From Alphaproteobacteria bacterium (GTDB lineage Bacteria; Pseudomonadota; Alphaproteobacteria; MPNO01; UBA2964): a stretch of 64,000 bases of DNA. A program made the translations under genes and the position numbers. The stretch covers positions 11,869 through 75,868 of the forward strand of contig WLWZ01000011.1 of assembly GCA_012103315.1 (NCBI GenBank), read 5' to 3'. Below are positions 4,859-55,581 of this stretch, one piece after another; within the stretch, counting starts at the first letter, position 1, and every line of letters starts with the position of its first letter. Below the pieces are notes generated by a model. The model ran no database searches. It was given only the letters and a program-made list of their open reading frames with translations, and had not been told where the DNA came from.

Positions 4859-5917
4859 CTATTTTTTCTTCTTGCCGCCTCTTTTGCGTTTGCCGGTCAG
4901 GCCGAGAAGTTTGCGGGCCTTTTTGATTTTTTCCGGTGACATTTTCATCATGGCGTTCACAAATTTCTGAATCTTCGGTCCCGGAATAGGCGTAATGTGA
5001 AAAGAACGACTCTTTGCCTTGGAAAGGAACTCCTTGTCATGGAGTGTCGCCCAATAGGCTTTGCCGAGCGCGGCGGCACGGTCCTTTGGCACACGCGGTG
5101 CGGCGGCAAAGGCCCGGTCAGACACGCCAGTTTGAATGAACTCAAAGATTTCGCGCTGGTCGGCATTTTGTGCCAAATCTGACAGCAAAGGGACGTTCGG
5201 CAGGTCAGGATGTTTTGACGATCCCATCTGGACCAAAACAGAGATCTTACCGTCGCGAATCCAGTCCGCTTTGCGGAGTGTCCATCCGAGCCAGCCACCT
5301 GCCCAGCCATGGAGTTCGCCGGTTTCAATGGCTTTACGGATTGGTGAGCCACCACGATAGCCGGTAACGATTTTGAATTTCGTTCCGAGCGCATTATTGA
5401 GCAGGCTTGGCAACATATAGGTGTTGTTCGACCGACCGATGGCGCCGACGATGGCTTGTTTCTTCTTGGCCTGTGCGATGCTGTGGACTCCGGCATCTTT
5501 GCGGAGCACCATTGTATTGGTCGCTTCACCCCAGCCACCGAGCCATTGGAATTTAGAAGGATCGTATTTAGCTTTGGTCAGCTTTAAGACCATCCGTTTG
5601 TCGATCCCAGCGTTCGGCGCGATGGCGACTGAGCCATCTTGTGGCGCGACGTTATAGACATAGTTGACGGCCTTGGTACCGCCAGCACCCCGAAGATGCT
5701 TAACGATAATGGTTGGTTTGCCGATCATATGTTTTGCCATATGCCGCGACAAAAGCTGCGCCATGGTTCCGTAAATACCGCCCGGCGATACACCGACATA
5801 GATTGTGAGTGTTTTGCCGTCATAGAATTCAGCGGGGCTTTTTGCTATTGCCGCGTTGGAAATTCCTAAAACAGCCGCCGCGGAAACTGCCGTGAGCAAA
5901 ATGCGAGTAGCTTTCAT
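4859..5917 (-). CDS. tctC: tripartite tricarboxylate transporter substrate-binding protein (TctC/Bug family) with a Lys-rich C-terminal tail
   Basis: Signal peptide 'MKATRILLTAVSAAAVLGISNAAIA', then the Bug-family fold (conserved 'GYRGG', 'PGGxxD'-like segments). It ends in '...GKRKRGGKKKK'. No adjacent tctAB. Confidence 0.75.
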   Translation of the reverse strand: MKATRILLTAVSAAAVLGISNAAIAKSPAEFYDGKTLTIYVGVSPGGIYGTMAQLLSRHMAKHMIGKPTIIVKHLRGAGGTKAVNYVYNVAPQDGSVAIAPNAGIDKRMVLKLTKAKYDPSKFQWLGGWGEATNTMVLRKDAGVHSIAQAKKKQAIVGAIGRSNNTYMLPSLLNNALGTKFKIVTGYRGGSPIRKAIETGELHGWAGGWLGWTLRKADWIRDGKISVLVQMGSSKHPDLPNVPLLSDLAQNADQREIFEFIQTGVSDRAFAAAPRVPKDRAAALGKAYWATLHDKEFLSKAKSRSFHITPIPGPKIQKFVNAMMKMSPEKIKKARKLLGLTGKRKRGGKKKK

Positions 5918-12479: not shown

Positions 12480-12760
12480 CGCATGCTTTGAGACCAGGAG
12501 TAATTTGAAATGAAAGCGCTGACTTATTCACTACTAAATGAATTTTGTGACGTTTCAATCTGGGTAACGTTAGGGCTCAGAGAAAGCCTGCCCATCCCGC
12601 GGATTAATGGCACTTATCATGCCAAATCTGTCATTTAGATGAGGTCTTGCTGAATCAGTGATTTGAGTCTTAGAATATTGGGGAATCGGTTTTTGATCGA
12701 CCGCTTCGATACGGCGTCAACGGTATGGCGCGAAGCAATAAATCAACTTCGGGAGGTACT

Positions 12761-13795
12761 ATGATTAAATACACTTTACCAATAGTTCTCGCCGCCTCCG
12801 TGACCGCTCTGCCGGCACTGGCGAATAAAGCGAAGCTAATGGAACTTTACAAAGAGAAAACCGTGACCATTACGATTCCGTATGGTCCTGGCGGAACTTA
12901 TGACAAATATGGTTTGAGTTTCTCTAATCATCTGGGACGTCAACTTCCCGGTAAGCCAAATATGATTCTGCAGTATATGCCAGGTGCCGGTGGTGCTAAG
13001 GCCATGAACTGGTTTGCCAATGTCGCCCCTAGACATGGCCGGAACCTGATTGTGCCGCTCGACAATACGGTTATCAACCAGGTCCTGCGTCCAAAAAAGA
13101 TGCGCTACAATGCAAACGATTTCACATGGCTTGGTTCTTCTAACCAGACTAATTCAGTGATCGTTATTCGTGCTGATAAAGGCATCAAGCACATCAATGA
13201 CATGAAAAAGATTCAGGCGATCGGTTCAACGAGTGGTAAGAACTCAAGCACTTATATCTTTTCTGTCTTAGCGGCAAAATTACTTGGCCTTAAGATGAAG
13301 ATGGTGACAGGTTATAAAGGGTCATCACGGTCTATCTTCGCCATCGAACAGGGTGAAGTCGATTTCACGGCACCGAACTGGCTGGCTTGGAATTCAAAAG
13401 TGCCGCATTGGTTCAAGGGCAAGAAACCTTTTGCTATTCCGATTTTGCAGAATGGGTTCTTTGTTGACCCCAATATTCCAGATGTACCCATGTTCACGGA
13501 ACTTGTGAAACCAGCAGACAGGCCTTTGGCTTCATTTCTGGCGTCAGCTGGTCCGCTTGGTCGCGGTTTGATTTTGCCACCAAAATCGCCGAAATACCTG
13601 ACGAAACCGCTTCGCGCGGCTTATGATGCGATGAACGCTGATCCGAAGTTCAATGCTGAACTGAAGAAACGTAAGCTTCGCTTGATCGCCAGTAAGGGTG
13701 AAGTCATTCAGGGTATTGTTGCTAAAGCGCTTAAAGACACATCACCTGCCGTCATCGCACGGGTAAGGTCATTGGTCTTTGGTAGCGGAAGCTAA
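12761..13795 (+). CDS. TctC/Bug-family periplasmic substrate-binding protein (orphan)
   Basis: Signal peptide 'MIKYTLPIVLAASVTALPALA'. Bug-family motifs 'PGAGGAKA', 'GYKGSS'. The start is moved to the ATG at 12761, which follows a GGGAGG RBS. Confidence 0.75.
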   Translation: MIKYTLPIVLAASVTALPALANKAKLMELYKEKTVTITIPYGPGGTYDKYGLSFSNHLGRQLPGKPNMILQYMPGAGGAKAMNWFANVAPRHGRNLIVPLDNTVINQVLRPKKMRYNANDFTWLGSSNQTNSVIVIRADKGIKHINDMKKIQAIGSTSGKNSSTYIFSVLAAKLLGLKMKMVTGYKGSSRSIFAIEQGEVDFTAPNWLAWNSKVPHWFKGKKPFAIPILQNGFFVDPNIPDVPMFTELVKPADRPLASFLASAGPLGRGLILPPKSPKYLTKPLRAAYDAMNADPKFNAELKKRKLRLIASKGEVIQGIVAKALKDTSPAVIARVRSLVFGSGS

Positions 13796-21001: not shown

Positions 21002-21754
21002 CTAAATCTTCCACATGGCGCGAACGCGCTTCTTCTCACTAGCGACTTTTCGGCCGCGTAACCGTTCCCAGAGTATGATTCCGGCGTAATTCTCGACCTT
21101 CGTCGCAGGCACGCGAAAATCCGCCAGTTTCTTGTGGGTTTCCTCATTCGGAAGAATGAAGGACCACATGTTCAATGCGCCTCTGTTATTTTCCGTCAGG
21201 ATAGATTTAAAATAGCGATGCGGTATTGGGATGCTAACGCCATTTTTATCCGTAGAGCCAATAACCTTAATCGATTTACCAAAATCGAAAATTGGCCCTG
21301 ATATGACATAGGTTTCAAATATCTTCGGATCGCTATCCAGTTCCCGTACCGCGCTTTCGTGGTCCTTCCAAATTGCCCGGTTAAATTTTGGCTTTTGTGG
21401 AGACATATTGGAAAGCAGGAAAGTTTCGCTGTTCTGCATCTCGCCTTCGCGCTGGTTAGCACTCGATACTAAGTGGCCGCGGTCATGACCCGACCCTTTG
21501 TAATCAACCAGGTCTGCGCGAAAAGCTTGGGGTATACGAAAGTCAGAGCGGAAATTATCAAGCCGCTCGACAGCTTCCTCGCCTTCGTCGATGCGCCCGA
21601 CAATTTCGAGAGCCCATTTAGCCTGTCGAAAATAATAGGAATAACCAATCGTGAAGTAGCGATTGACCATGATCTGGTCGGCGGCCGGGGCTCCGTATCG
21701 AGCTTCCCGGCAATGGCTCAGTAGCTCCGTCATGACAAACGCCCCGTTATTCAA
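21002..21754 (-). CDS. DNA/RNA non-specific endonuclease (EndoG / Serratia nuclease family), apparently cytoplasmic
   Basis: Active-site block 'SGHDRGHLVSSANQ' (the DRGH motif). There is a downstream Asn/Glu metal site region. No signal peptide is visible at either candidate start (MNNGAF... or MTELL...). Confidence 0.7.
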   Translation of the reverse strand: MNNGAFVMTELLSHCREARYGAPAADQIMVNRYFTIGYSYYFRQAKWALEIVGRIDEGEEAVERLDNFRSDFRIPQAFRADLVDYKGSGHDRGHLVSSANQREGEMQNSETFLLSNMSPQKPKFNRAIWKDHESAVRELDSDPKIFETYVISGPIFDFGKSIKVIGSTDKNGVSIPIPHRYFKSILTENNRGALNMWSFILPNEETHKKLADFRVPATKVENYAGIILWERLRGRKVASEKKRVRAMWKI

Positions 21755-23051: not shown

Positions 23052-24254
23052 TTAAACTGCGGGGCCAATTGATTGTGGTGTCTTGATTGGGCCAGTAAGC
23101 TCGCTATCAGGCAGAGCTAGAATCGAAGGCTCGTCGAAGACATCGGTCATGTTTGAGCTCACACCATTCTCGGCAATCGCTTCCAGCCATTTGCGATGGA
23201 TGCGAGGATCCTGATCTTCATATTCGACCTGGCGGCCACCTTCCTGAATTGATGTCGCGCCTTTGCCTTCTGCGCTTTTGCGGCGTAGCGCAATAAATGG
23301 ATAGCGACGGCTGCCCATGCTGCACGCCAGATAGCGCGCCGGTTGATCGCAGGTGTTGAAATGTTGATGGAACATCCAGAACGGCGGCGTGTACATAAAG
23401 CCATGTTCCCAGGGAAATTCCTTGAATTCCTGATCGCCTTCATACCACAGAAGGGTATAGCCGGTGCCGCTAACGGCATGAACATGGGTCCCGGCGGCAT
23501 GACGATGGGCCTTTTTGTAGCGGCCCATTGGTATTTCTGACGAATGGGCATGCATTGTGCTGTCGGCCAGAATAAACGAAACGTTCAACGATCCTTTGCC
23601 GCGTGAATCCATCGCGTAAAGTTTGAAGTTGGTCAGGTCATTGACGAAATTCGTTTCCCAAAGATTAGCCTCTGCAACATTGTCGCCGCGATTAACCGTG
23701 AGATGATCACCCTCGCCATCAAAATGCTTGCTGTCGCCAATCCTCTCCGGAAAATCGAAATCATTTTCGAACACAAAGCGTTCGTTATGAAATAGGTTGA
23801 TGACCAGCGGTGCGTCATTCGTGCAAGACAGACGCGCGGGCTCTTGTCCGGAGCCGTTGAATATCTGGTATTCGCAGTTCAGTGGCACTGTGAACAGAGA
23901 TTTGGGTCCCCATTCAAAGGTACGCACTTCGCCGTCGGGGTAGGTGACTGTGGTTGAGCCATAGCCTGACAGGGCATAGAAGAAGGCTTCGTAGATATGT
24001 TTGATGGGGGCAGTCTTTTTACTCGGCGCAACTTCTAAAACATAGTTTGCCATGAAGTCGCCATTGCCGTGGGTGTGCGCAAAACAGCCGCGCGCATCCC
24101 ATCGATCCCAGACATCTGTCTCAAGCGCCAGCAGGTTATGCCCGAAGTCGAGATGCATGGGTATGCCTTCACCCTTCGCCCAGTCCATATAGGGATCAAC
24201 CAGGAATTTCTTGCTTAAATCGATTTCTTCTTCGGGAGTATTTTCGTCAGACAT
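23052..24254 (-). CDS. bicupin-fold protein (gentisate-dioxygenase-like), paralogue of 17315-18541
   Basis: 'KAHRHAAGTHVHAVSGTGYT' (His-rich cupin motif 1) and 'PPFWMFHQHFN' (motif 2). The C-terminal half shares long blocks with the other paralogue. Confidence 0.45.
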   Translation of the reverse strand: MSDENTPEEEIDLSKKFLVDPYMDWAKGEGIPMHLDFGHNLLALETDVWDRWDARGCFAHTHGNGDFMANYVLEVAPSKKTAPIKHIYEAFFYALSGYGSTTVTYPDGEVRTFEWGPKSLFTVPLNCEYQIFNGSGQEPARLSCTNDAPLVINLFHNERFVFENDFDFPERIGDSKHFDGEGDHLTVNRGDNVAEANLWETNFVNDLTNFKLYAMDSRGKGSLNVSFILADSTMHAHSSEIPMGRYKKAHRHAAGTHVHAVSGTGYTLLWYEGDQEFKEFPWEHGFMYTPPFWMFHQHFNTCDQPARYLACSMGSRRYPFIALRRKSAEGKGATSIQEGGRQVEYEDQDPRIHRKWLEAIAENGVSSNMTDVFDEPSILALPDSELTGPIKTPQSIGPAV

Positions 24255-24316: not shown

Positions 24317-24805
24317 CTAGACCAGACCTGCCCATTCTAGCAGGACGCCCGGTGGGAAGGGAAGATGCAGCAAGTGCCCGAAGACATACCAGGTGGCAAT
24401 TCCGGTCCCGAGTGGTAGGGCTATCGTCATCGCGAGTGTTTCTTTATGGCGCAGCATATAGGCCAGCACCATAACCGGGGCAGCGGTATAGAAACCGATG
24501 AGCCAAAGCAGCAAGGCGAAGCCATACATCCAGGCAAATAATTCCAGCGCACGACGTTTGCCTACTTTCGAGGACTCTTCTTCTGAAAAATCAATGTCGA
24601 CTCCGGTTTCATCCGTCTCAGTCTTGGCCGGAGGCAGGATTTCCCGGATCAGCTGGTAAACCAATAAGGCCAGCGCAATAAGACCAATGGTCCATGGGTA
24701 AAGTTTTGCCTGTAACGGCATGTCTGACGACGAAATGACGACATAGGCAAACAAGGCAATAAAGCAAAGTGTCAGCAAGGACCTGGGTTGAAATCTTAAA
24801 CTCAT
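24317..24805 (-). CDS. tctB: tripartite tricarboxylate transporter small permease TctB
   Basis: A small four-TM protein directly after tctA. The start is set to the ATG at 24805, which follows a GGAGG RBS, and is adjacent to the tctA stop. Confidence 0.65.
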   Translation of the reverse strand: MSLRFQPRSLLTLCFIALFAYVVISSSDMPLQAKLYPWTIGLIALALLVYQLIREILPPAKTETDETGVDIDFSEEESSKVGKRRALELFAWMYGFALLLWLIGFYTAAPVMVLAYMLRHKETLAMTIALPLGTGIATWYVFGHLLHLPFPPGVLLEWAGLV

Positions 24806-24806
24806 G

Positions 24807-26303
24807 TTATGCCTCCGTTTCCTGTGCCCGGAGTTTTGAATTCCGGTCCTGGAACATTGGATAGCATACGCAAACCACGAGGATCGCAAAGATGATCAAC
24901 ACACCGGGTCGTAATAGGAAGTCGGCGCCAAAGAGCTGTACTGATGTCCACATATGACGTTCAGCGATCGGGCCAAGCACAAGCCCGAGCAGAAGTGGCG
25001 GGCGCGGCCAACCCGCGGCCCGCATGAAATAGCCGATGGTTCCGAAAGCGAACATGATTATGACATCTTCGAAACGGCTGGAGGCGGCGAAGCTGCCAAT
25101 TACCGCCATTGCCAGAATGATGGGAATCATCAGGGAGGGGCGTAGCTTGGACGCCATCGCGAGTTGCCGGGTAAAGGCAAGACACAAAATCGATGTAATG
25201 ATTGTTCCGATGATCAGGAGCCAGATCATTGAGAAGGTGAGATGCAAATCTTTGGTCAGCATGTCACGTCCGGGCGTAATCCCGACGATGATCAACCCGC
25301 CAAAAATGAGCGCCAATGTGCTCGACCCTGGAATACCAAAGGCGAGGGTAGGGATTAGGGAGCCACCTTCTTTGGCATTGGTCGCTGCATCGACGGCGAT
25401 AACACCGCGAACATCACCTTTGCCAAATGTCTCGCGAGCACCTTCACAAGTTTGTTTGGCGCTACCATAAGCGAACCAGTCGGCAACCGCTGAACCGAGG
25501 CCCGGGATAATGCCAACCCAAACGCCGATCAGGCTACTGCGGAGGACGAGCCAGCGGTGGGTAAATGCATCCTTGATGCCTTGCCGCCGGCCTTTGCCAA
25601 GATCGCCCAGCGGAAGGTCAGAAATTCCTGTTCCTTTAACGCCCATATAGATCAGCTCGGGAATAGCGAACAATCCAATGGTGACCGGAATTAGTTTTAA
25701 CCCATCCAGCAAGTAAATTTGGTCGAAGGTAAAACGGTGCAGGCCGGTAATCATGTGAACACCGACCATCGAAATAACAAGCCCGAGGCCGCCTGCAATG
25801 ATGCCTTTAACGGGAGCTTTTCCGCTCAGGGCACCGACCATGGCGATACCAACCATTACCAACATAAAGAATTCAGGGGGGCCGAGTAATAGGACAAGAG
25901 GGCGTAGGATCGGGATCGCGACAAGAAGCACCATTGCGCCAATGATGCCGCCTATTGCTGAGGAGGTGAAGGCTGCGGCCAAGGCACGCGCGGCTTCACC
26001 TTTCTTGGCCATTGGATAGCCATCCATGATGGTGGCTTGCGAGCCACCACCACCCGGGACGCTGAACAGAATTGAAGTGATCGAATTGGCGGTATTGCTG
26101 ACCGCCCAGACGCTCATAATGAGGCAGATCGCTTCGAACTGATTGAGAACGAAGGCAATAGGGAGCAGTAATGCGATGGCGGTTTTACTGCCAATGCCGG
26201 GCATAGCGACCAACGTCGAACTAATGACGATACCTACCATCATCAGTAACAACGCTTTCCACTGTAGAATGCCGTAGAGGCCTTCAAGGGCAGCGTCGAT
26301 CAT
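24807..26303 (-). CDS. tctA: tripartite tricarboxylate transporter large permease TctA
   Basis: 498 aa polytopic membrane protein with the duplicated TctA fold and repeated 'G.PG..' / 'GIIPGLG' motifs. Confidence 0.8.
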   Translation of the reverse strand: MIDAALEGLYGILQWKALLLMMVGIVISSTLVAMPGIGSKTAIALLLPIAFVLNQFEAICLIMSVWAVSNTANSITSILFSVPGGGGSQATIMDGYPMAKKGEAARALAAAFTSSAIGGIIGAMVLLVAIPILRPLVLLLGPPEFFMLVMVGIAMVGALSGKAPVKGIIAGGLGLVISMVGVHMITGLHRFTFDQIYLLDGLKLIPVTIGLFAIPELIYMGVKGTGISDLPLGDLGKGRRQGIKDAFTHRWLVLRSSLIGVWVGIIPGLGSAVADWFAYGSAKQTCEGARETFGKGDVRGVIAVDAATNAKEGGSLIPTLAFGIPGSSTLALIFGGLIIVGITPGRDMLTKDLHLTFSMIWLLIIGTIITSILCLAFTRQLAMASKLRPSLMIPIILAMAVIGSFAASSRFEDVIIMFAFGTIGYFMRAAGWPRPPLLLGLVLGPIAERHMWTSVQLFGADFLLRPGVLIIFAILVVCVCYPMFQDRNSKLRAQETEA

Positions 26304-26365
26304 CGCCTTGTCTTTCCGTTAAAGGTAAAAAGGCCGCCCCATCGGGACGGCCCTTTTTGTAACGC

Positions 26366-27625
26366 CTATTTACAGTCGATCTTTGCGGCTTCTTTGCCAG
26401 GCTTTGGATAGGTGAATTTGCAGGTCATACCTACTTTGATCTTTTTACGTTTCACCTTTTTACCATTGAGTGTGACCTTGGTCCGTGAGCCCGAGACCTT
26501 GGCCATCACTTCTTTACCTTTGTAGTCGATCCAAATGCGACGGCCTTTTCTTTTGATCTTGGTGACCTTGCCGCTGTGCTTCGCGAATTTGCTCAGATCT
26601 TTTTTAGGTTTCTTGGCACCAGATTTATAAAGCGCGATGACTTTGTCAGATGCTCCTAGAATTTCAGCATTGATCTTTGTCATCAGAGCCGGTGCTGTCC
26701 AAGCAACGTTGCGCTTGGCGCGTTTGGACTCTCTCAAAAGATCTTTGTCATGCAATGCCGACTTAAAAGCTGCCCTCAATGTTTTTAGGCGGTCGGCGGG
26801 AACCCCACCTGTCGTGAAGAACGGACGACCAGCGGCCAAAGGTGCGCCGAGAAGGGCTGCGAGAGCTTTCCCTTGGCTGGACAGCTCGGTCCCAACATGG
26901 GGAACGCCCTTAAGAGCTGGATGTGGGGCGCCATTATACAAGATTGGAATTAGCCCCAATTCCTTGATCGCCTTGCTGGTGCTCTCATAGCTGTTTGCTG
27001 TGCCCTGAACATCACCGCGTTCGATGGCAAGAAAACGGTTTTGGCCACCGCTGAATCCGGAGATGATTTTGACGTTAAATCCATCTTGTTTCAAAAGGGC
27101 CGGGTATTGATAAGATCCGGAGCCGGGGCCGGTAGCTGCAAACAAAATGGTCTTTTTTGATGCTTTAAGCTGCTTGAGGCTACGGATGGGCTGGTTCTTG
27201 CCCATTACAACCAGGAAGGTTGAAGAAGCGGCACTGCCGATTGCACTCAATTTACTGAGGTCATATTTGACGCCTACGGCTTTGGTGCGCTGTGCCAGGG
27301 CCAGTTCGCGCGTGAGGATCGCGATCTCGGTACCATTCTTCTTGGCGCGGTTGGCCATATAGTTGGCAGCGACGATGCCGCCAGCGCCTGGCATATTAAT
27401 GACAATCATCTTGGGTTTGCCGGGAATAAATTTAGGCATATGGCGTGCTAAAAGACGGCCATAAAAATCGTAACCGCCGCCGGGTGCGGAACGCACGATC
27501 ATCTTAATCGTTTTGCCTTTATAGAACCCTTGAGCATTAACCGTTTGAGTATCGGCGACGCCCCAGGCCGCGATGCCAGCGATGAGGCTGCCAAGCGCGA
27601 GTGATCCTGAAAATTTCTTCATCAA
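26366..27625 (-). CDS. tctC: TctC substrate-binding protein with a ~95 aa Lys/Arg-rich C-terminal extension
   Basis: Residues 1-~320 are a normal Bug/TctC domain with a signal peptide. The remainder, 'KSGAKKPKKDLSKFAKHSGKVTKIKRKGRRIWIDYKGKEVMAKVSGSRTKVTLNGKKVKRKKIKVGMTCKFTYPKPGKEAAKIDCK', is not part of the family fold. It is the first gene of the tctCAB operon. Confidence 0.75.
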   Translation of the reverse strand: MMKKFSGSLALGSLIAGIAAWGVADTQTVNAQGFYKGKTIKMIVRSAPGGGYDFYGRLLARHMPKFIPGKPKMIVINMPGAGGIVAANYMANRAKKNGTEIAILTRELALAQRTKAVGVKYDLSKLSAIGSAASSTFLVVMGKNQPIRSLKQLKASKKTILFAATGPGSGSYQYPALLKQDGFNVKIISGFSGGQNRFLAIERGDVQGTANSYESTSKAIKELGLIPILYNGAPHPALKGVPHVGTELSSQGKALAALLGAPLAAGRPFFTTGGVPADRLKTLRAAFKSALHDKDLLRESKRAKRNVAWTAPALMTKINAEILGASDKVIALYKSGAKKPKKDLSKFAKHSGKVTKIKRKGRRIWIDYKGKEVMAKVSGSRTKVTLNGKKVKRKKIKVGMTCKFTYPKPGKEAAKIDCK

Positions 27626-27699
27626 AATTCCTCCAAGTTAGTGTTTGTATTTTTGTTCTGTAGAGACGCTAACGGAGCTTGTTGAATGTTTCAACAGGA

Positions 27700-29196
27700 T
27701 CAATCCACATTGATGCCGGATTCTTTAGCGGCGTGCCGGCCTGCCCGACGACCTGAGGTGAAGGCCCAGCCAATATGATGGCCATGTCCTTTGAGCATTA
27801 GCCCGCCTTGGCCGGCGGAAGCAGCCGCAAAGACTCCGGGAATGGCAGTGTCGTTTTCGCCCAATAGACGATGATCTTCATCAACGGCAAGACCGCCATC
27901 GGTCAAGACGATATAGCTCTTAGCCGGACCCAACGCATAGAACGGCCCTGATGATAATTTTGTTTCGCTTGTTGCATTATGGGCTTCAACGGATTTCTTG
28001 AACTCCTCGGGTGGCATATCCATGGCACCGGCAAGTGTCATAACGGTCTCAGCCTTATGAAAAATATCAGGTCGAGTTTTTCGAAAGTCATCGAGATAGG
28101 CGTATGAAACGCCCGGTGCGGTAGCGATAAAATCGGGCCACGCTGAATACTTTGCTGCCAATTCGCTATCCAGGATGACATAACCAATCTTGTCCGGTTC
28201 GGAGGCGATGGCGAGACCGAGCTTTGACGGCTCGTCGGTAATACGTTGCCCGTTTTTATTCACGAGCAAGGCACCATTGGTAAAAAGAGCGAGTTCCGGA
28301 GCCATAGAAGTCGTGGTGAAACCCAGTACGAAAGGGCGAAGAATTCGATCTGGTAAATACTTCAAGGCGAACCGCATAAATTTGGTGACGACTGGCCAGG
28401 GCGGTAGCATGCGATCAATTGTTTCTCTCGGCGGAGCGATAAATCTCAGCGTTGGACCGGAAAGAACGTCACCATTCAATACTTTGGCACCAAGCGGAAA
28501 AGCCATTTCATGGCCATCGCCGGTGGCGTTGGGGTTCATGGCATCAACCAAGGCGACTTCTGGTGAAATGTATTGAGCCTTGAGTTTATGGTTGGCGGCG
28601 TAGTCACCACTGGCAAGGACGACGGTCTTGGCGTGAACTTCCGTTATGCCTAACGGCATTTCGCATCGAGCCCCGACAACGCGATCACCGTCGAGCAGGA
28701 ATTTGTTAGCACGGCTATTGCAACGGATTTCGACTCCAATTTTGGCAGCATATTTTCCGAGATGGTGGATATAGGCTCGCGAATTGGGCAGGACGTTATG
28801 CATACGCGGTTTACGATGCGGTGGCTCAGGCATCGGGCCGAAAAACTCGACGCCCATCGACATCAGCCAGCGCAACGTCTCATTGGCATTGTCGACGAAA
28901 ATACGACGTAGTTTGGGATTGTCTCGATCGGCCTGATCACCAGAAAACTTGGGCATATCTTCAAAATGCTCGTCGGGTGTATCGACAATGCCGTCCGAGA
29001 GCTGGTGCGGAGTTTGCGTGGCCGAAAAAGACCCAATTGACCAGGCGGTGGTTCCGCCCAGTTCAGGATTTTTCTCGATGAGCATGACTTTGGCACCATG
29101 AGTTCGGGCTTCGATAGCTGCTGCCAAACCGGCGCCACCCCCGCCGACGACTAATACATCACAACTCAAAGATTGCTCTTCGGACACGTATCCCAC
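27700..29196 (-). CDS. FAD-binding flavoprotein dehydrogenase (fumarate reductase / 3-ketosteroid dehydrogenase-like)
   Basis: N-terminal 'CDVLVVGGGGAGLAAAIE' dinucleotide fold. The C-terminal 'GLYAAGE'-equivalent region is 'GVFAAASAGQGGLMLKGHGHH'. Confidence 0.65.
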   Translation of the reverse strand: MGYVSEEQSLSCDVLVVGGGGAGLAAAIEARTHGAKVMLIEKNPELGGTTAWSIGSFSATQTPHQLSDGIVDTPDEHFEDMPKFSGDQADRDNPKLRRIFVDNANETLRWLMSMGVEFFGPMPEPPHRKPRMHNVLPNSRAYIHHLGKYAAKIGVEIRCNSRANKFLLDGDRVVGARCEMPLGITEVHAKTVVLASGDYAANHKLKAQYISPEVALVDAMNPNATGDGHEMAFPLGAKVLNGDVLSGPTLRFIAPPRETIDRMLPPWPVVTKFMRFALKYLPDRILRPFVLGFTTTSMAPELALFTNGALLVNKNGQRITDEPSKLGLAIASEPDKIGYVILDSELAAKYSAWPDFIATAPGVSYAYLDDFRKTRPDIFHKAETVMTLAGAMDMPPEEFKKSVEAHNATSETKLSSGPFYALGPAKSYIVLTDGGLAVDEDHRLLGENDTAIPGVFAAASAGQGGLMLKGHGHHIGWAFTSGRRAGRHAAKESGINVD

Positions 29197-29340: not shown

Positions 29341-30336
29341 ATGAAGATCGACGTTTTTAACCATGTGTTCCCCAATGAGTTCTTTGAAGCCGCTGAAAAG
29401 CTGATGCCAGCGCGCGCTGTAAAGCGTTGGAAGGCGATGGAAGAACTCTACGATATGGATGCCCGAATGAAGGTAATCGATAAGTTTGACGATTATCAGC
29501 AGATCATTTCCATATCTCAGCCACCGTTAGATATCATCGCGGGGCCAAATGATTCGCCTGAGCTCGCCCGCGTCGCGAATGATGGTATGGCGCGCATTTG
29601 TCGGGAATACCCAGATCGCATGCCGTGGTTTATCGCAGCATTACCGATGAATAATACAGATGAAGCTATCCGCGAAGTTGACCGCGTTCTCGATGAACAT
29701 GGTGCCGTGGGTTTTCAGATCCATTCGAATGTTGGCGGCAAACCGCTTGATGCGCCAGAGTTCCGTGACATTTTTGCGAAGATCGCCGAACGAGGGAAAT
29801 GTGTCTGGCTTCACCCAACACGACCAGCAAGCCATGCAGATTATTTGACCGAAGACCAGTCACACTACGAAATGTTTTGGGGCATCGGCTGGGCTTATGA
29901 GACGACAGCCGCGATGTGCCGGATGGTTTGTTCGGGCATGTTTGATGAAATCCCCAACTTCCATGTCATGGCACATCACTGGGGTGCCTATATTCCGCAC
30001 GCGGAAGGTCGTATGCCACTGTGGGAGGCACGGAACGGGACTATGTCGGCGGATGGTAGGTCCTTTGCCGATGATCTTGAAAAGCCGATGCTCGATTATT
30101 TCAAAATGTTTTATGGTGATACGGCGATGTTTGGCGCTAAGGCACAAAGCCAAGCAGGGCTGGATTTCTTTGGGTCTGGCAATTCGTTCTTTGCCACGGA
30201 TGCGCCGTATGACCTCACAGGTGGCGAGGATAATATTCGGGAAACCATCGACGTTATCGAGAGTCTAAATTGTACCGATGAAGACCGCCAGGTGATCTAC
30301 GAGGACAATACGAGAAAGCTCATCCTTGGTGAATAG
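29341..30336 (+). CDS. amidohydrolase-2 family (ACMSD / LigW-type) metal-dependent decarboxylase or hydrolase
   Basis: 'MKIDVFNHVFP' has the HxH metal motif at the start, typical of the PF04909 family. There are later His/Asp ligands ('WLHP', 'HHWG', 'FATDAPY'). Its stop abuts the next start (TAGATG). Confidence 0.65.
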   Translation: MKIDVFNHVFPNEFFEAAEKLMPARAVKRWKAMEELYDMDARMKVIDKFDDYQQIISISQPPLDIIAGPNDSPELARVANDGMARICREYPDRMPWFIAALPMNNTDEAIREVDRVLDEHGAVGFQIHSNVGGKPLDAPEFRDIFAKIAERGKCVWLHPTRPASHADYLTEDQSHYEMFWGIGWAYETTAAMCRMVCSGMFDEIPNFHVMAHHWGAYIPHAEGRMPLWEARNGTMSADGRSFADDLEKPMLDYFKMFYGDTAMFGAKAQSQAGLDFFGSGNSFFATDAPYDLTGGEDNIRETIDVIESLNCTDEDRQVIYEDNTRKLILGE

Positions 30337-31065
30337 ATGACCGAATTCGACGCTATTATTCCACGGGCTCGGTTGGGTTTTATCATTCCGTCATCAAACC
30401 GGATGGTAGAACCGCAATTGCAGCATTACTGCCCGGATGGCGTCGTTCCCCATTTTAACCGGATCGGCATGACCAATCGGCATAAGGCGCCGCTCGATGA
30501 GTTGATGCCGCGGATACTATTGGCCGCTGAATTGCTCGGTGATTCCAAATGCGACGTGACGGTATTGCAATGTACCGGGACGTCGATGTCGGGCGGTGTC
30601 GAGAACGAACGAGAGGTCATCTCGGCGATTGAGGATTTGACCGGAAAGCCGGCAGCCTCGGCGGCTTCTTCGCTGATGGATGCTTTTCAGGCGATAGATG
30701 CACAGCGTTTGGTGTTTGTGTCGGAAACCCCTCAGGCCGGCCATGACAAAAAACTGGCCTTTTTGAGAGAGGCTGGGCTGGACATCATTGCGGACAAGGC
30801 AATGGAACTCGGGGGCAGTGATATCTATTGCAGCACGCCACCTGAATTCTGGTTTGAGAATGTAATGGCCATGCGCAATGACGATGCTGATGCTTACTTC
30901 GTCAGTTGCGCCAATATCCACAGTGTCGATGTTATCGAAGCCCTGGAAGATGAGCTTGGTCGACCCGTGATCACCAGCAATCAGGCGGCGCTTTGGTCAG
31001 CGCTCCGCCTGGCTGGTTTAAACGACAATATCTCCGCTTTGGGCCGGTTATTTAAGACCGGCTAA
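30337..31065 (+). CDS. Asp/Glu/hydantoin racemase superfamily protein (maleate isomerase / arylmalonate decarboxylase-like)
   Basis: 'LGFIIPSSNRMVE' N-terminal motif and the two-Cys architecture of the maleate isomerase / AMDase class ('LQCTGTS', 'VSCANI'). Confidence 0.55.
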   Translation: MTEFDAIIPRARLGFIIPSSNRMVEPQLQHYCPDGVVPHFNRIGMTNRHKAPLDELMPRILLAAELLGDSKCDVTVLQCTGTSMSGGVENEREVISAIEDLTGKPAASAASSLMDAFQAIDAQRLVFVSETPQAGHDKKLAFLREAGLDIIADKAMELGGSDIYCSTPPEFWFENVMAMRNDDADAYFVSCANIHSVDVIEALEDELGRPVITSNQAALWSALRLAGLNDNISALGRLFKTG

Positions 31066-54558: not shown

Positions 54559-55581
54559 CTATTTGGCGAAAATGATCGAACGGAGGCGGGCTTTGTGACC
54601 GGCACTGATAGTTTTGACTGCGTCACCGACGATTTTTTGAACCTTTAGCCCAGACGTCGGTAAAAGGCGGAGCCGTTGTTTGCGAATGTCGCCGATGAAC
54701 TGCTTGTCTTTAATCATCTTGTCAAAAGCGCTACGCAGAGCTTTGAGGGCCCCTTTTGGTGCTCTTGGCGGGAGCAAGAGGCTGTAGCCGATGGCGCCGG
54801 GCGTTGAAACCAGCTTTACCAGGCTGTGGTCTTGTTTGTTGGTTATTTCATGCAGCATTGGTAGTTTCTTGAGCAATGGATCGCGAAAATACCCAACCTG
54901 TACCAGTGGGATCGCGAAATTGCCGGTCTTCTTGAACCAGTGCGGAACGATGGTGTTCCAGGTCAGCCAGTCAAACGCTGCACCGACATGCGTTTTCTTC
55001 TCCATTTCGCTGATTGTCTTGCGAGCGGTCTTCAGCTCGGCGACCAGTTTGATTTCGGTTTTAACGATATATCGCATGAGCTTCGGGATGATGTAAGACA
55101 TCGATCCGCGATTGGTATAGCCGATGACCAGTTTTTTGCCGATAATATCCTTTGCGGTTTTCAGGTTGGTATCCTCGCGCAGCGCGAAAACCCGGTTTGC
55201 GGCACTAACTGATCCGATCCAGGAAAAATGGCTGGGATTATATTTTACTGCTTTGGGCCATAGCGCCCGTGACAGAACGAGTGTGTCGGGTGGCAAGAGA
55301 ATGTTCAGCCCATTTCTGGGCATGGCATTGTAGGCAAAGTTCGTCGCCTTTATGCCGCCGGCGCCAACGATAGATTGCACCGTTATCTTTGGCTTTCCGG
55401 GGATGAACCGATAAAGGTGTCGGGCGATTGTGCGTGAGTATTTCTCACTTGCGCTGCCAATCATCCCGGTATTAACCAGCTTGATTTGTGGAGATTTCCC
55501 TTTGGCAGCATTTGTGGTGCCTGCGGTCAGGCTAACCGCAATCAAAGCTGTCATCAGAAATGTTCTATTCAAAATGTTCAT
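54559..55581 (-). CDS. TctC/Bug-family periplasmic substrate-binding protein (orphan)
   Basis: Signal peptide 'MNILNRTFLMTALIAVSLTAGTTNA' and Bug-family motifs 'GAGGIKA', 'GYTNRGS'. Confidence 0.7.
   Translation of the reverse strand: MNILNRTFLMTALIAVSLTAGTTNAAKGKSPQIKLVNTGMIGSASEKYSRTIARHLYRFIPGKPKITVQSIVGAGGIKATNFAYNAMPRNGLNILLPPDTLVLSRALWPKAVKYNPSHFSWIGSVSAANRVFALREDTNLKTAKDIIGKKLVIGYTNRGSMSYIIPKLMRYIVKTEIKLVAELKTARKTISEMEKKTHVGAAFDWLTWNTIVPHWFKKTGNFAIPLVQVGYFRDPLLKKLPMLHEITNKQDHSLVKLVSTPGAIGYSLLLPPRAPKGALKALRSAFDKMIKDKQFIGDIRKQRLRLLPTSGLKVQKIVGDAVKTISAGHKARLRSIIFAK

Follow-up and report, generated by a model that had tools for sequence, protein, structure and literature searches.

A small, conserved C-terminal β-barrel on TctC-like and other periplasmic binding proteins, with a possible docking or retention role

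Marine heterotrophs take up nutrients mainly through binding-protein-dependent transporters, among which the tripartite tricarboxylate transporters (TTT) are the least understood class. One puzzle is how dozens to hundreds of orphan TctC binding proteins share a few TctAB carriers. Here we examine a tctC-like gene (26366..27622, minus strand) in a 64,000-nucleotide stretch of contig WLWZ01000011.1 from an alphaproteobacterium, and this whole stretch is called the window. The predicted protein continues beyond its TctC fold into an extension rich in Lys and Arg, which raises the question of what this extension is and what it might do for a periplasmic binding protein. An earlier inspection without database searches (hereafter the sequence-only reading) described a polybasic domain of ~95 amino acids that could tether the protein to anionic components of the envelope.

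We find that the extension carries a small β-barrel, and that this barrel is a mobile, autonomous C-terminal module of periplasmic binding proteins from two unrelated transporter classes. We have very high confidence in this anatomy, meaning that the module is real, conserved, folded and mobile. Its function is addressed below in more guarded terms.

Anatomy and fold of the extension

The open reading frame (ORF) originally described at 26366..27625 on the minus strand is present, and it encodes 419 amino acids from a TTG codon at 27625 that is located one codon upstream of an ATG at 27622. We take the product to be 418 amino acids (followed by the stop codon) because a ribosome-binding site, GGAGGA, occupies positions 27629..27634, 6 nucleotides ahead of the ATG, and because an identical database protein has this length. 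Thus, the ATG is likely the true start. The database protein (P0001, 100% identity) is encoded on a 195 kb contig and is listed as 'MAG: hypothetical protein GKS01_14970 [Alphaproteobacteria bacterium]', where MAG denotes a metagenome-assembled genome.

The extension past the TctC fold spans 82-84 amino acids, which is shorter than the ~95 first proposed, but it is indeed highly basic. Lys and Arg account for 36.6% of its residues, compared with 14.8% in the core (binomial p = 9e-7), and its net charge is +25. It begins with a linker of 14 amino acids, KKPKKDLSKFAKHS (26573..26614, minus strand), that includes 6 Lys residues, and continues with a module of 68 amino acids (26369..26572, minus strand) that ends with IDCK.

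An initial search for homologues gave 398 proteins. Among the best 120, approximately 100 have lengths of 407-423 amino acids, cover 92-100% of the query at 45-100% identity, and align through the tail. These are independent metagenome and MAG proteins from the NCBI, ENA, JGI, Logan and Tara collections. A lost stop codon, which was a concern when the extension was first noticed, is ruled out because the tail remains in frame across these homologues.

Modeling of the tail by AlphaFold2, based on an alignment of 24 tails, predicts six strands with a local confidence score (pLDDT) of 91.3 and a global score (pTM) of 0.76, and the local score is low in the first ten residues only. The linker has a pLDDT of 63 in this tail-only model versus 85-90 in the full-length model. 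The small beta-rich module suspected by the sequence-only reading is therefore predicted to be a six-strand β-barrel. Judging from the models and alignments, the tail is a folded domain with a conserved sequence, and a description as a disordered polybasic segment fits only the 14-amino-acid linker and a 12-amino-acid tag on an orphan TctC protein of the window (see below).

Across 352 aligned barrels the signature can be written as G..(x)..SGSRT..G...R...K.GM.C...EA...C(K). In the numbering of the tail, conservation reaches 99% for S43, 94% for R46, 95% for T47, 99% for R58, 90% for K62, 100% for G64 and 94% for M65, with E77 and A78 at 80-87%. The first conserved Cys is C67 of the tail (C401 of the 418-amino-acid protein, or C402 in the 419-amino-acid numbering; codon 26420..26422, minus strand), which is present in 350 of the 352 barrels. 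The second, C83 (codon 26372..26374, minus strand), is the penultimate residue and is found in all 352. In the AlphaFold2 model C67 resides on strand 5, and both Cys residues belong to a hairpin made of the final two strands. Given this placement and the periplasmic location, a C67-C83 disulfide would be expected to staple the C-terminal strand.

Proteins terminate 0-2 residues past the last Cys in nearly all barrel instances fetched (148 representatives examined). The ending is CK in 197 of 345 C-termini (57%) and the Cys itself in 21, whereas the others end with CN, CQ, CM, CE, CKS and similar variants.

The barrel also evolves more slowly than the other parts compared. Mean identity to the window protein over 85 homologues is 0.65 for the barrel, 0.59 for the core and 0.43 for the linker, which is the least conserved segment. 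Distant paralogues retain 0.40-0.59 identity in the barrel versus 0.27-0.35 in the core. It is the cores that diversify, presumably for different substrates, and not the barrel.

Relationship to known domain families

No significant match to Pfam-A or NCBIfam models was obtained for the window tail, the 24 tails or the stand-alone barrels described below. Sub-threshold matches are scattered (GldM_2nd 0.03, Sso7d 0.05, ExtJ 27.8 versus 52.5 bits). The Pfam model for DUF5666 (PF18914) does not match the tail or the 24 tails up to E 1, nor does it match any of 10 stand-alone forms. A sequence search of the PDB with the tail yields no matching chain. Foldseek searches with the barrel model return only generic barrels of the oligonucleotide/oligosaccharide-binding (OB) type with E 3e-3 or worse. 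These include the LysRS anticodon-binding domain, CusF, RPA, IF1, CspA and, as a weak match, an S-layer self-assembly domain (9fs9). For CusF structures (3e6z, 2vb2, 2qcp, 1zeq) the Foldseek TM-score is 0.54-0.56 with E 6e-3 to 6e-2, and other OB folds score equally.

A more distant relationship emerges from profile comparison. The barrel profile search also caught long multi-repeat secreted proteins, three of which were scanned with Pfam. P0165 and P0264 carry DUF5666 (plus CusF_Ec), and P0132 carries CusF_Ec only. When the tail alignment was compared by hhalign with DUF5666-type repeats drawn from P0132, P0165, P0222 and P0264 (P0222 being included without a Pfam scan), the match had a probability of 97.6% and E 4.7e-12 over 71 columns. 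Because of this match we place the barrel among the DUF5666-like small barrels, where it is best described as a distinct two-Cys subfamily linked to the others by remote homology.

The barrel and the DUF5666 repeats have equal length, an equal strand pattern (G.I..VD...T.I..NG......L..GM) and a secreted context. However, the two near-invariant Cys residues, the SGSRT loop and the conserved Arg belong to the barrel subfamily. Moreover, binding proteins carry one or two barrels at their C-terminus, whereas DUF5666 occurs in long arrays. To our knowledge, no function is known for the DUF5666 superfamily.

A full-text literature search turned up no account of a comparable domain, whether on TTT proteins or on other binding proteins. 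The sequence-only reading had recognized that its proposal would be refuted if the tail were a widespread and already annotated feature of TctC orthologues. The barrel is a widespread accessory domain, but no curated family model in Pfam or NCBIfam matched it.

Distribution of the barrel

The barrel profile search of a representative library yielded 470 clusters at 50% identity, 226 of which have E <= 1e-10. TctC proteins with a single barrel are spread across many clades, including those nearest to three of the four paralogue types in the window. In other TctC proteins the barrel is duplicated in tandem (P0121, P0125, P0143). The barrel is carried by 9 non-TctC proteins as well, and ATP-binding cassette (ABC) type binding proteins of the SBP_bac_1/6/8 families are among the carriers (P0210, P0228, P0252, P0265). 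The gene for P0228 is located between genes for an ABC ATPase and a BPD_transp_1 permease, and so it is part of a genuine ABC operon. Where the N-terminal domain of a carrier can be identified, the carrier is a binding protein, and there are also forms that lack a passenger.

These stand-alone barrels are 84-104 amino acids in length, consist of a signal peptide and a barrel, and make up at least 200 clusters at 90% identity. The idea that the domain might be found free or on other periplasmic proteins was therefore well founded. Almost all of the few stand-alone clusters that have a source name are labelled 'hypothetical protein', and the fusions are annotated as 'hypothetical' or plain TctC. 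Some free barrels are encoded within TTT loci. Two loci (L077 and L078) have the arrangement tctC::barrel, free barrel, tctA, tctB, and in a third (L079) a tandem row of three free barrels separates tctA/tctB-like pairs from a 415-amino-acid tctC::barrel. Other stand-alone barrel genes have no transporter neighbours.

In L077 (2433..5312) an insertion sequence (DDE_Tnp_1) directly precedes a tctC::barrel gene whose N-terminal part is missing, presumably because the gene was cut by the insertion. In the free barrel downstream of it, Phe replaces the first conserved Cys. Two short proteins join the beginning of a binding protein directly to a barrel. P0122 (114 amino acids) consists of a signal peptide and the first residues of a TctC-type core followed by the barrel, and P0218 (141 amino acids) has the same construction with an ABC-type core. 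Both look like internal-deletion derivatives, which suggests one route to stand-alone barrels. We also considered a Rosetta-stone relationship, wherein a tail-less homologue would be accompanied by a separate barrel gene nearby, but this fails in the single case checked (P0101).

A scan of one genome per species uncovered 68 loci with 100 tail-bearing ORFs, nearly all of which have a TctC-like core. The scan used a narrower alignment and patterns from close relatives, and so its loci are biased toward close relatives and distant carriers are under-sampled. All 68 loci are from MAGs of uncultured Alphaproteobacteria, Rhodospirillales/Rhodospirillaceae and Hyphomicrobiaceae. Most named barrel-bearing relatives are marine, and all carriers are uncultured. 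A genome can hold many barrel-bearing tctC genes, with up to six of them in a tandem array within 12 kb, and among the 68 loci tctA and tctB follow only the direct orthologues of the window gene. Arrays of four to six such genes within 12 kb are found in L030 (1864..12211), L031 (250..10821), L028 and L038. Two tail-only ORFs of the tandem arrays (L019 3029..3202 and L030 4562..4783) were set aside as decayed fragments rather than genes.

A possible docking and retention module

The barrel is autonomous, is conserved across paralogues and is not bound to one kind of membrane subunit, from which we infer that its target is most likely a component found throughout the periplasm or envelope. The gene encodes a genuine two-domain periplasmic binding protein composed of a TctC/Bug core and the 68-amino-acid C-terminal β-barrel, and we propose that the latter is stapled by the putative disulfide between its last two strands. 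The barrel would bind a common and conserved periplasmic or envelope partner. This partner could be a surface, a polymer or a protein, but would not be the membrane subunit of the transporter. In this manner, dozens of binding proteins with differing specificity might gain the same docking or retention handle, and tandem barrels might add avidity.

We favor this explanation as a whole, in which an autonomous docking or retention module has become supercharged in the lineage of the window, although we judge it to have somewhat less than an even chance of being correct. The disulfide, a partner shared by all barrels and a role in retention are deduced indirectly, and the handle mechanism taken by itself is less likely than not. 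Docking that is specific for TctAB was rejected because a barrel-bearing ABC binding protein is encoded in a normal ABC operon. Likewise, an acidic loop of TctB was considered as a source of counter-charge, but this loop is probably cytoplasmic by the positive-inside rule.

Tethered substrate-binding domains are known from other systems, either as lipoprotein binding proteins or as fusions to membrane subunits (GlnPQ, OpuA). The barrel is possibly analogous to these, in that an added element would hold the binding protein in a defined place. However, the window protein has neither a lipobox nor a fusion to a membrane subunit, and its added element is a soluble barrel.

Several observations weigh against a docking function. 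Parts of the signature (R-T, NG, GM) recur in DUF5666-type repeats, and so the residues held in common may be determinants of the fold rather than of a binding site. A very small domain packs tightly, and this alone might explain why the barrel is more conserved than the core. The neighbourhoods of stand-alone barrel genes are mixed, with a TTT locus evident in two of the four contexts that can be judged.

A more ambitious version of the docking proposal seems unlikely to us. It holds that the barrel is a common handle that ties dozens of TTT and ABC binding proteins to one conserved envelope receptor or scaffold, with free barrels serving as competitors or adaptors, and that this arrangement is coupled to lineage-wide supercharging. 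If true, it would constitute an unrecognized layer of spatial organization in binding-protein-dependent uptake by uncultured Alphaproteobacteria, whose named members are mostly marine.

More generally, a slower-evolving extra domain that is common to TTT binding proteins, ABC binding proteins and a free form could point to a partner or an organizing principle. At minimum, the 470 clusters represent a domain family without a matching curated model.

Charge of the barrel and of the other TctC-like proteins

The window encodes three additional TctC-like proteins. The sequence-only reading considered the orphan at 4859..5917 (minus strand) to be unrelated and to carry a shorter version of the tail. 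Instead, it is a paralogue with 33% identity to the tailed protein (E 1e-32), and it has no barrel. The orphan ends with an oligo-Lys tag of 12 amino acids, TGKRKRGGKKKK (4862..4897, minus strand), which is variable and of low complexity and is not a shortened barrel. Relatives of the orphan (P0270-P0323) end with MGL followed by 0-12 mostly Lys residues (KKK, NKKKKK, TGKRKRGGKKKK). The tag is common in the closer relatives (at least ~56% identity) and mostly absent in the distant ones, a few of which retain it.

The other two paralogues, at 12725..13795 (plus strand, pI 10.2) and 54559..55581 (minus strand, pI 10.55), have no tail, as previously noted. Their lack of a tail had been cited as an argument that the basic extension is not a compositional artefact of the family. 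This argument must be qualified, since all four TctC-like proteins of the window have an isoelectric point (pI) of 10.2-10.55 and a net charge of +28 to +54, regardless of whether a tail is present. In contrast, cytoplasmic enzymes encoded around these genes have pI values of 4.5-5.5. It looks as if the periplasmic binding proteins of the whole lineage have become cationically supercharged, in core and barrel alike. A pI above 10 for all four of these proteins is a second simple observation that merits attention at the scale of the proteome.

Charge is not a conserved property of the barrel. Stand-alone barrels are near neutral (~0 to +6), and acidic barrels are present in P0143 (-7/-4), P0127 and P0128. 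When net charge per residue is compared across 121 full-length proteins, the barrel tracks the core with a Spearman coefficient of 0.77, a value that is descriptive only because the sequences are related, and the barrel is ~3 times more charge-dense than the core. Because neutral and acidic homologous barrels exist, charge cannot be the conserved function of the barrel.

These findings bear on the main alternative to docking through a specific partner, which is that the polycationic linker and tail stick non-specifically to anionic phospholipid, lipopolysaccharide or peptidoglycan, with charge as the working principle. The net charge of +25 in 82-84 amino acids, the KKPKK linker, the oligo-Lys tags in the subfamily of the orphan, the strongly cationic nature of every TctC-like binding protein in the window, and the roughly threefold charge density of the tail relative to the core across homologues are all compatible with such a tether. 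However, the tail is folded and conserved in sequence rather than being a low-complexity polycation, and its fold and signature persist in neutral and acidic homologues. Furthermore, paralogues without a tail are just as basic. High ionic strength, such as that of seawater, screens simple electrostatics. We therefore give a purely electrostatic tether a fairly low probability.

A more limited form of this idea can be accommodated by the docking proposal. The extreme Lys and Arg content may strengthen the association with anionic envelope surfaces in seawater. Such an electrostatic contribution may apply to the lineage of the window, but not as the conserved function of the domain. Thus, the polycationic tether put forward by the sequence-only reading might be retained at the level of a lineage, but not as the general principle.

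Other possible roles for the barrel

Alternatively, the barrel could be an accessory ligand-binding domain of a CusF-like kind, with a metal ion or a small anion as its ligand, and could pre-concentrate or hand over a substrate or co-substrate. CusF is a periplasmic Cu(I)/Ag(I) metallochaperone that occurs both free and fused to other proteins, and the barrel is likewise found in both forms. The barrel may share with CusF a small five- or six-strand OB-like fold in the periplasm, and CusF (PF11604) is among the best fold matches (3e6z, 2vb2; TM ~0.55, E 6e-3 to 2e-2). Pfam CusF_Ec matches in the related multi-repeat proteins, the conservation of M65, C67, C83, S43, R46 and R58, and the free periplasmic forms in TTT loci also fit a binding role. 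Yet the fold likeness is weak and generic to OB folds, since LysRS, RPA, IF1 and CspA score alike, and there is no significant sequence match between CusF and the barrel. The metal site of CusF is composed of His, two Met residues and a capping Trp. This set has no counterpart among the 352 barrel instances, which have one conserved Met (M65) and no conserved His or Trp. In addition, a disulfide would be a simpler explanation for a pair of Cys residues on adjacent C-terminal strands in the periplasm. Overall, a CusF-like function appears improbable.

We assign a similarly small likelihood to an oligomerization or scaffold module, wherein barrels associate mutually and with free barrels to form clusters of binding proteins. 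Two-copy forms, multi-repeat relatives, the weak fold match to the S-layer self-assembly domain (9fs9), the free barrels encoded next to barrel-bearing tctC genes, and a conservation that exceeds that of the core can all be read in this way. In the window lineage, however, each barrel carries a charge of +20, and mutual repulsion would work against self-association.

A signal for export beyond the periplasm or for covalent attachment to the envelope would resemble the C-terminal sorting domains of type IX secretion systems (T9SS), which also occupy the extreme C-terminus of many proteins per genome. The barrel is always found at this position, there are many paralogous carriers per genome within a restricted lineage, and 57% of the proteins end with Cys-Lys. 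Against this, stand-alone barrels without a passenger and tandem double barrels exist, and apart from the stand-alone forms the identifiable N-terminal domains of the carriers are all from binding proteins. Lpp-like attachment via the C-terminal Lys was rejected because only 197 of 345 proteins end with CK and Lys is not obligatory, and no sorting enzyme or machinery was seen in the 12 barrel-gene neighbourhoods examined. We consider a sorting signal very unlikely.

Lastly, the notion that a lost stop, a frameshift or a chimeric assembly joined a normal tctC gene to downstream sequence has essentially no chance of being correct and is already refuted, since its sole basis is that canonical TTT binding proteins are only ~300-335 amino acids long, whereas the tail is covered in the ~100 independent full-length homologues, recurs in the 100 tail-bearing ORFs of the 68 genome loci, and is under stronger constraint in its barrel than the core is.

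Signal peptide and TctC/Bug core

The protein begins with a Sec-type signal peptide, MKKFSGSLALGSLIAGIAAWGVADTQTVNAQ (27530..27622, minus strand), which is evident from the sequence and corresponds to the low pLDDT of residues 1-30 in the full-length model. Because this sequence has no lipobox Cys, the product is predicted to be soluble in the periplasm. The cleavage site, too, is predicted from the sequence.

The signal peptide is followed by a two-lobe substrate-binding core of ~305 amino acids (26615..27529, minus strand; approximately residues 32-336 of the 418). The core does not reach the gathering score of the Pfam TctC model (PF03401; 19.2 bits versus a cut-off of 27), but PF03401 is carried by many close homologues of the window protein. 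A profile of 93 homologues matches 11 solved TTT binding proteins in the PDB with E 6e-21 to 2e-12, including BugD, BugE, Bug27, TphC, AdpC and MatC, and always at profile positions 24-331. The full-length AlphaFold2 model (pLDDT 91.3, pTM 0.78) has TTT binding proteins for all of its best 17 PDB matches by Foldseek, with TM-scores normalized to target length (TMt) of 0.63-0.83. Thus, the core is a divergent TctC/Bug protein, and is a TTT binding protein both by sequence profile and by fold. It is predicted to bind an organic acid and deliver it to the adjacent TctA/TctB carrier.

The window protein shares the signal peptide, the two-lobe type II fold and a location beside tctA and tctB with the Bug/TctC proteins (BugD 2f5x, BugE 2dvz, Bug27 2qpq, TphC 7ndr, AdpC 5oei, MatC 6hke). 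It differs from them by its score below the Pfam TctC threshold, its unusually basic character (pI ~10.5) and its barrel. The solved chains are ~290-334 amino acids long and comprise the core without a C-terminal domain, and nothing in them matches the tail. Bug/TctC genes have also expanded in particular lineages, giving orphan genes and tandem arrays, as have the barrel-bearing tctC loci. Such expansions of orphan TTT binding proteins have been reported in Bordetella and Rhodoplanes (PMC5812351, PMC5994714), and neither report mentions an extra C-terminal domain.

Operon and flanking genes

The tctC-like gene is the first of an operon (24317..27622, minus strand) that continues with tctA for the large membrane subunit (24807..26303, minus strand; Pfam TctA E 8e-118) and tctB for the small membrane subunit (24317..24805, minus strand; Pfam TctB E 1e-13). 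The order tctC-tctA-tctB differs from the classical tctC-tctB-tctA, and it is kept in the orthologous loci L001-L006 and L053. If tctB is taken as its longest ORF, which starts at a TTG farther upstream, it overlaps the end of tctA. With the ATG at 24805, which we use here, it begins just past the tctA stop codon.

Between the tctC stop codon and the tctA start is a GC-rich stem-loop flanked by A5/U5 (26327..26357, minus strand; dG -26.1, z -2.8). A simple terminator scan did not flag this structure. Hairpins just past the tctC stop codon are also present in L001, L002, L004, L006 and L053, where the position is conserved and the sequences differ. The stem-loop is probably an intercistronic attenuator or mRNA stabilizer that would allow the binding protein to be made in excess over the membrane subunits.

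The operon is flanked by genes for a FAD_binding_2 oxidoreductase (27700..29196, minus strand) and a bicupin (23052..24254, minus strand). Nearby are an Amidohydro_2 gene (29341..30336, plus strand) and an arylmalonate-decarboxylase-like gene (30337..31065, plus strand; Pfam Amdase E 4e-23). This arrangement suggests that the TTT locus is catabolic for some organic acid, and judging by the flanking enzyme genes the transporter might carry an acid of the aryl- or alkyl-malonate type. A gene for a DNA/RNA non-specific endonuclease (21002..21754, minus strand; Endonuclease_NS E 1e-37) is located a few kb from the transporter genes.

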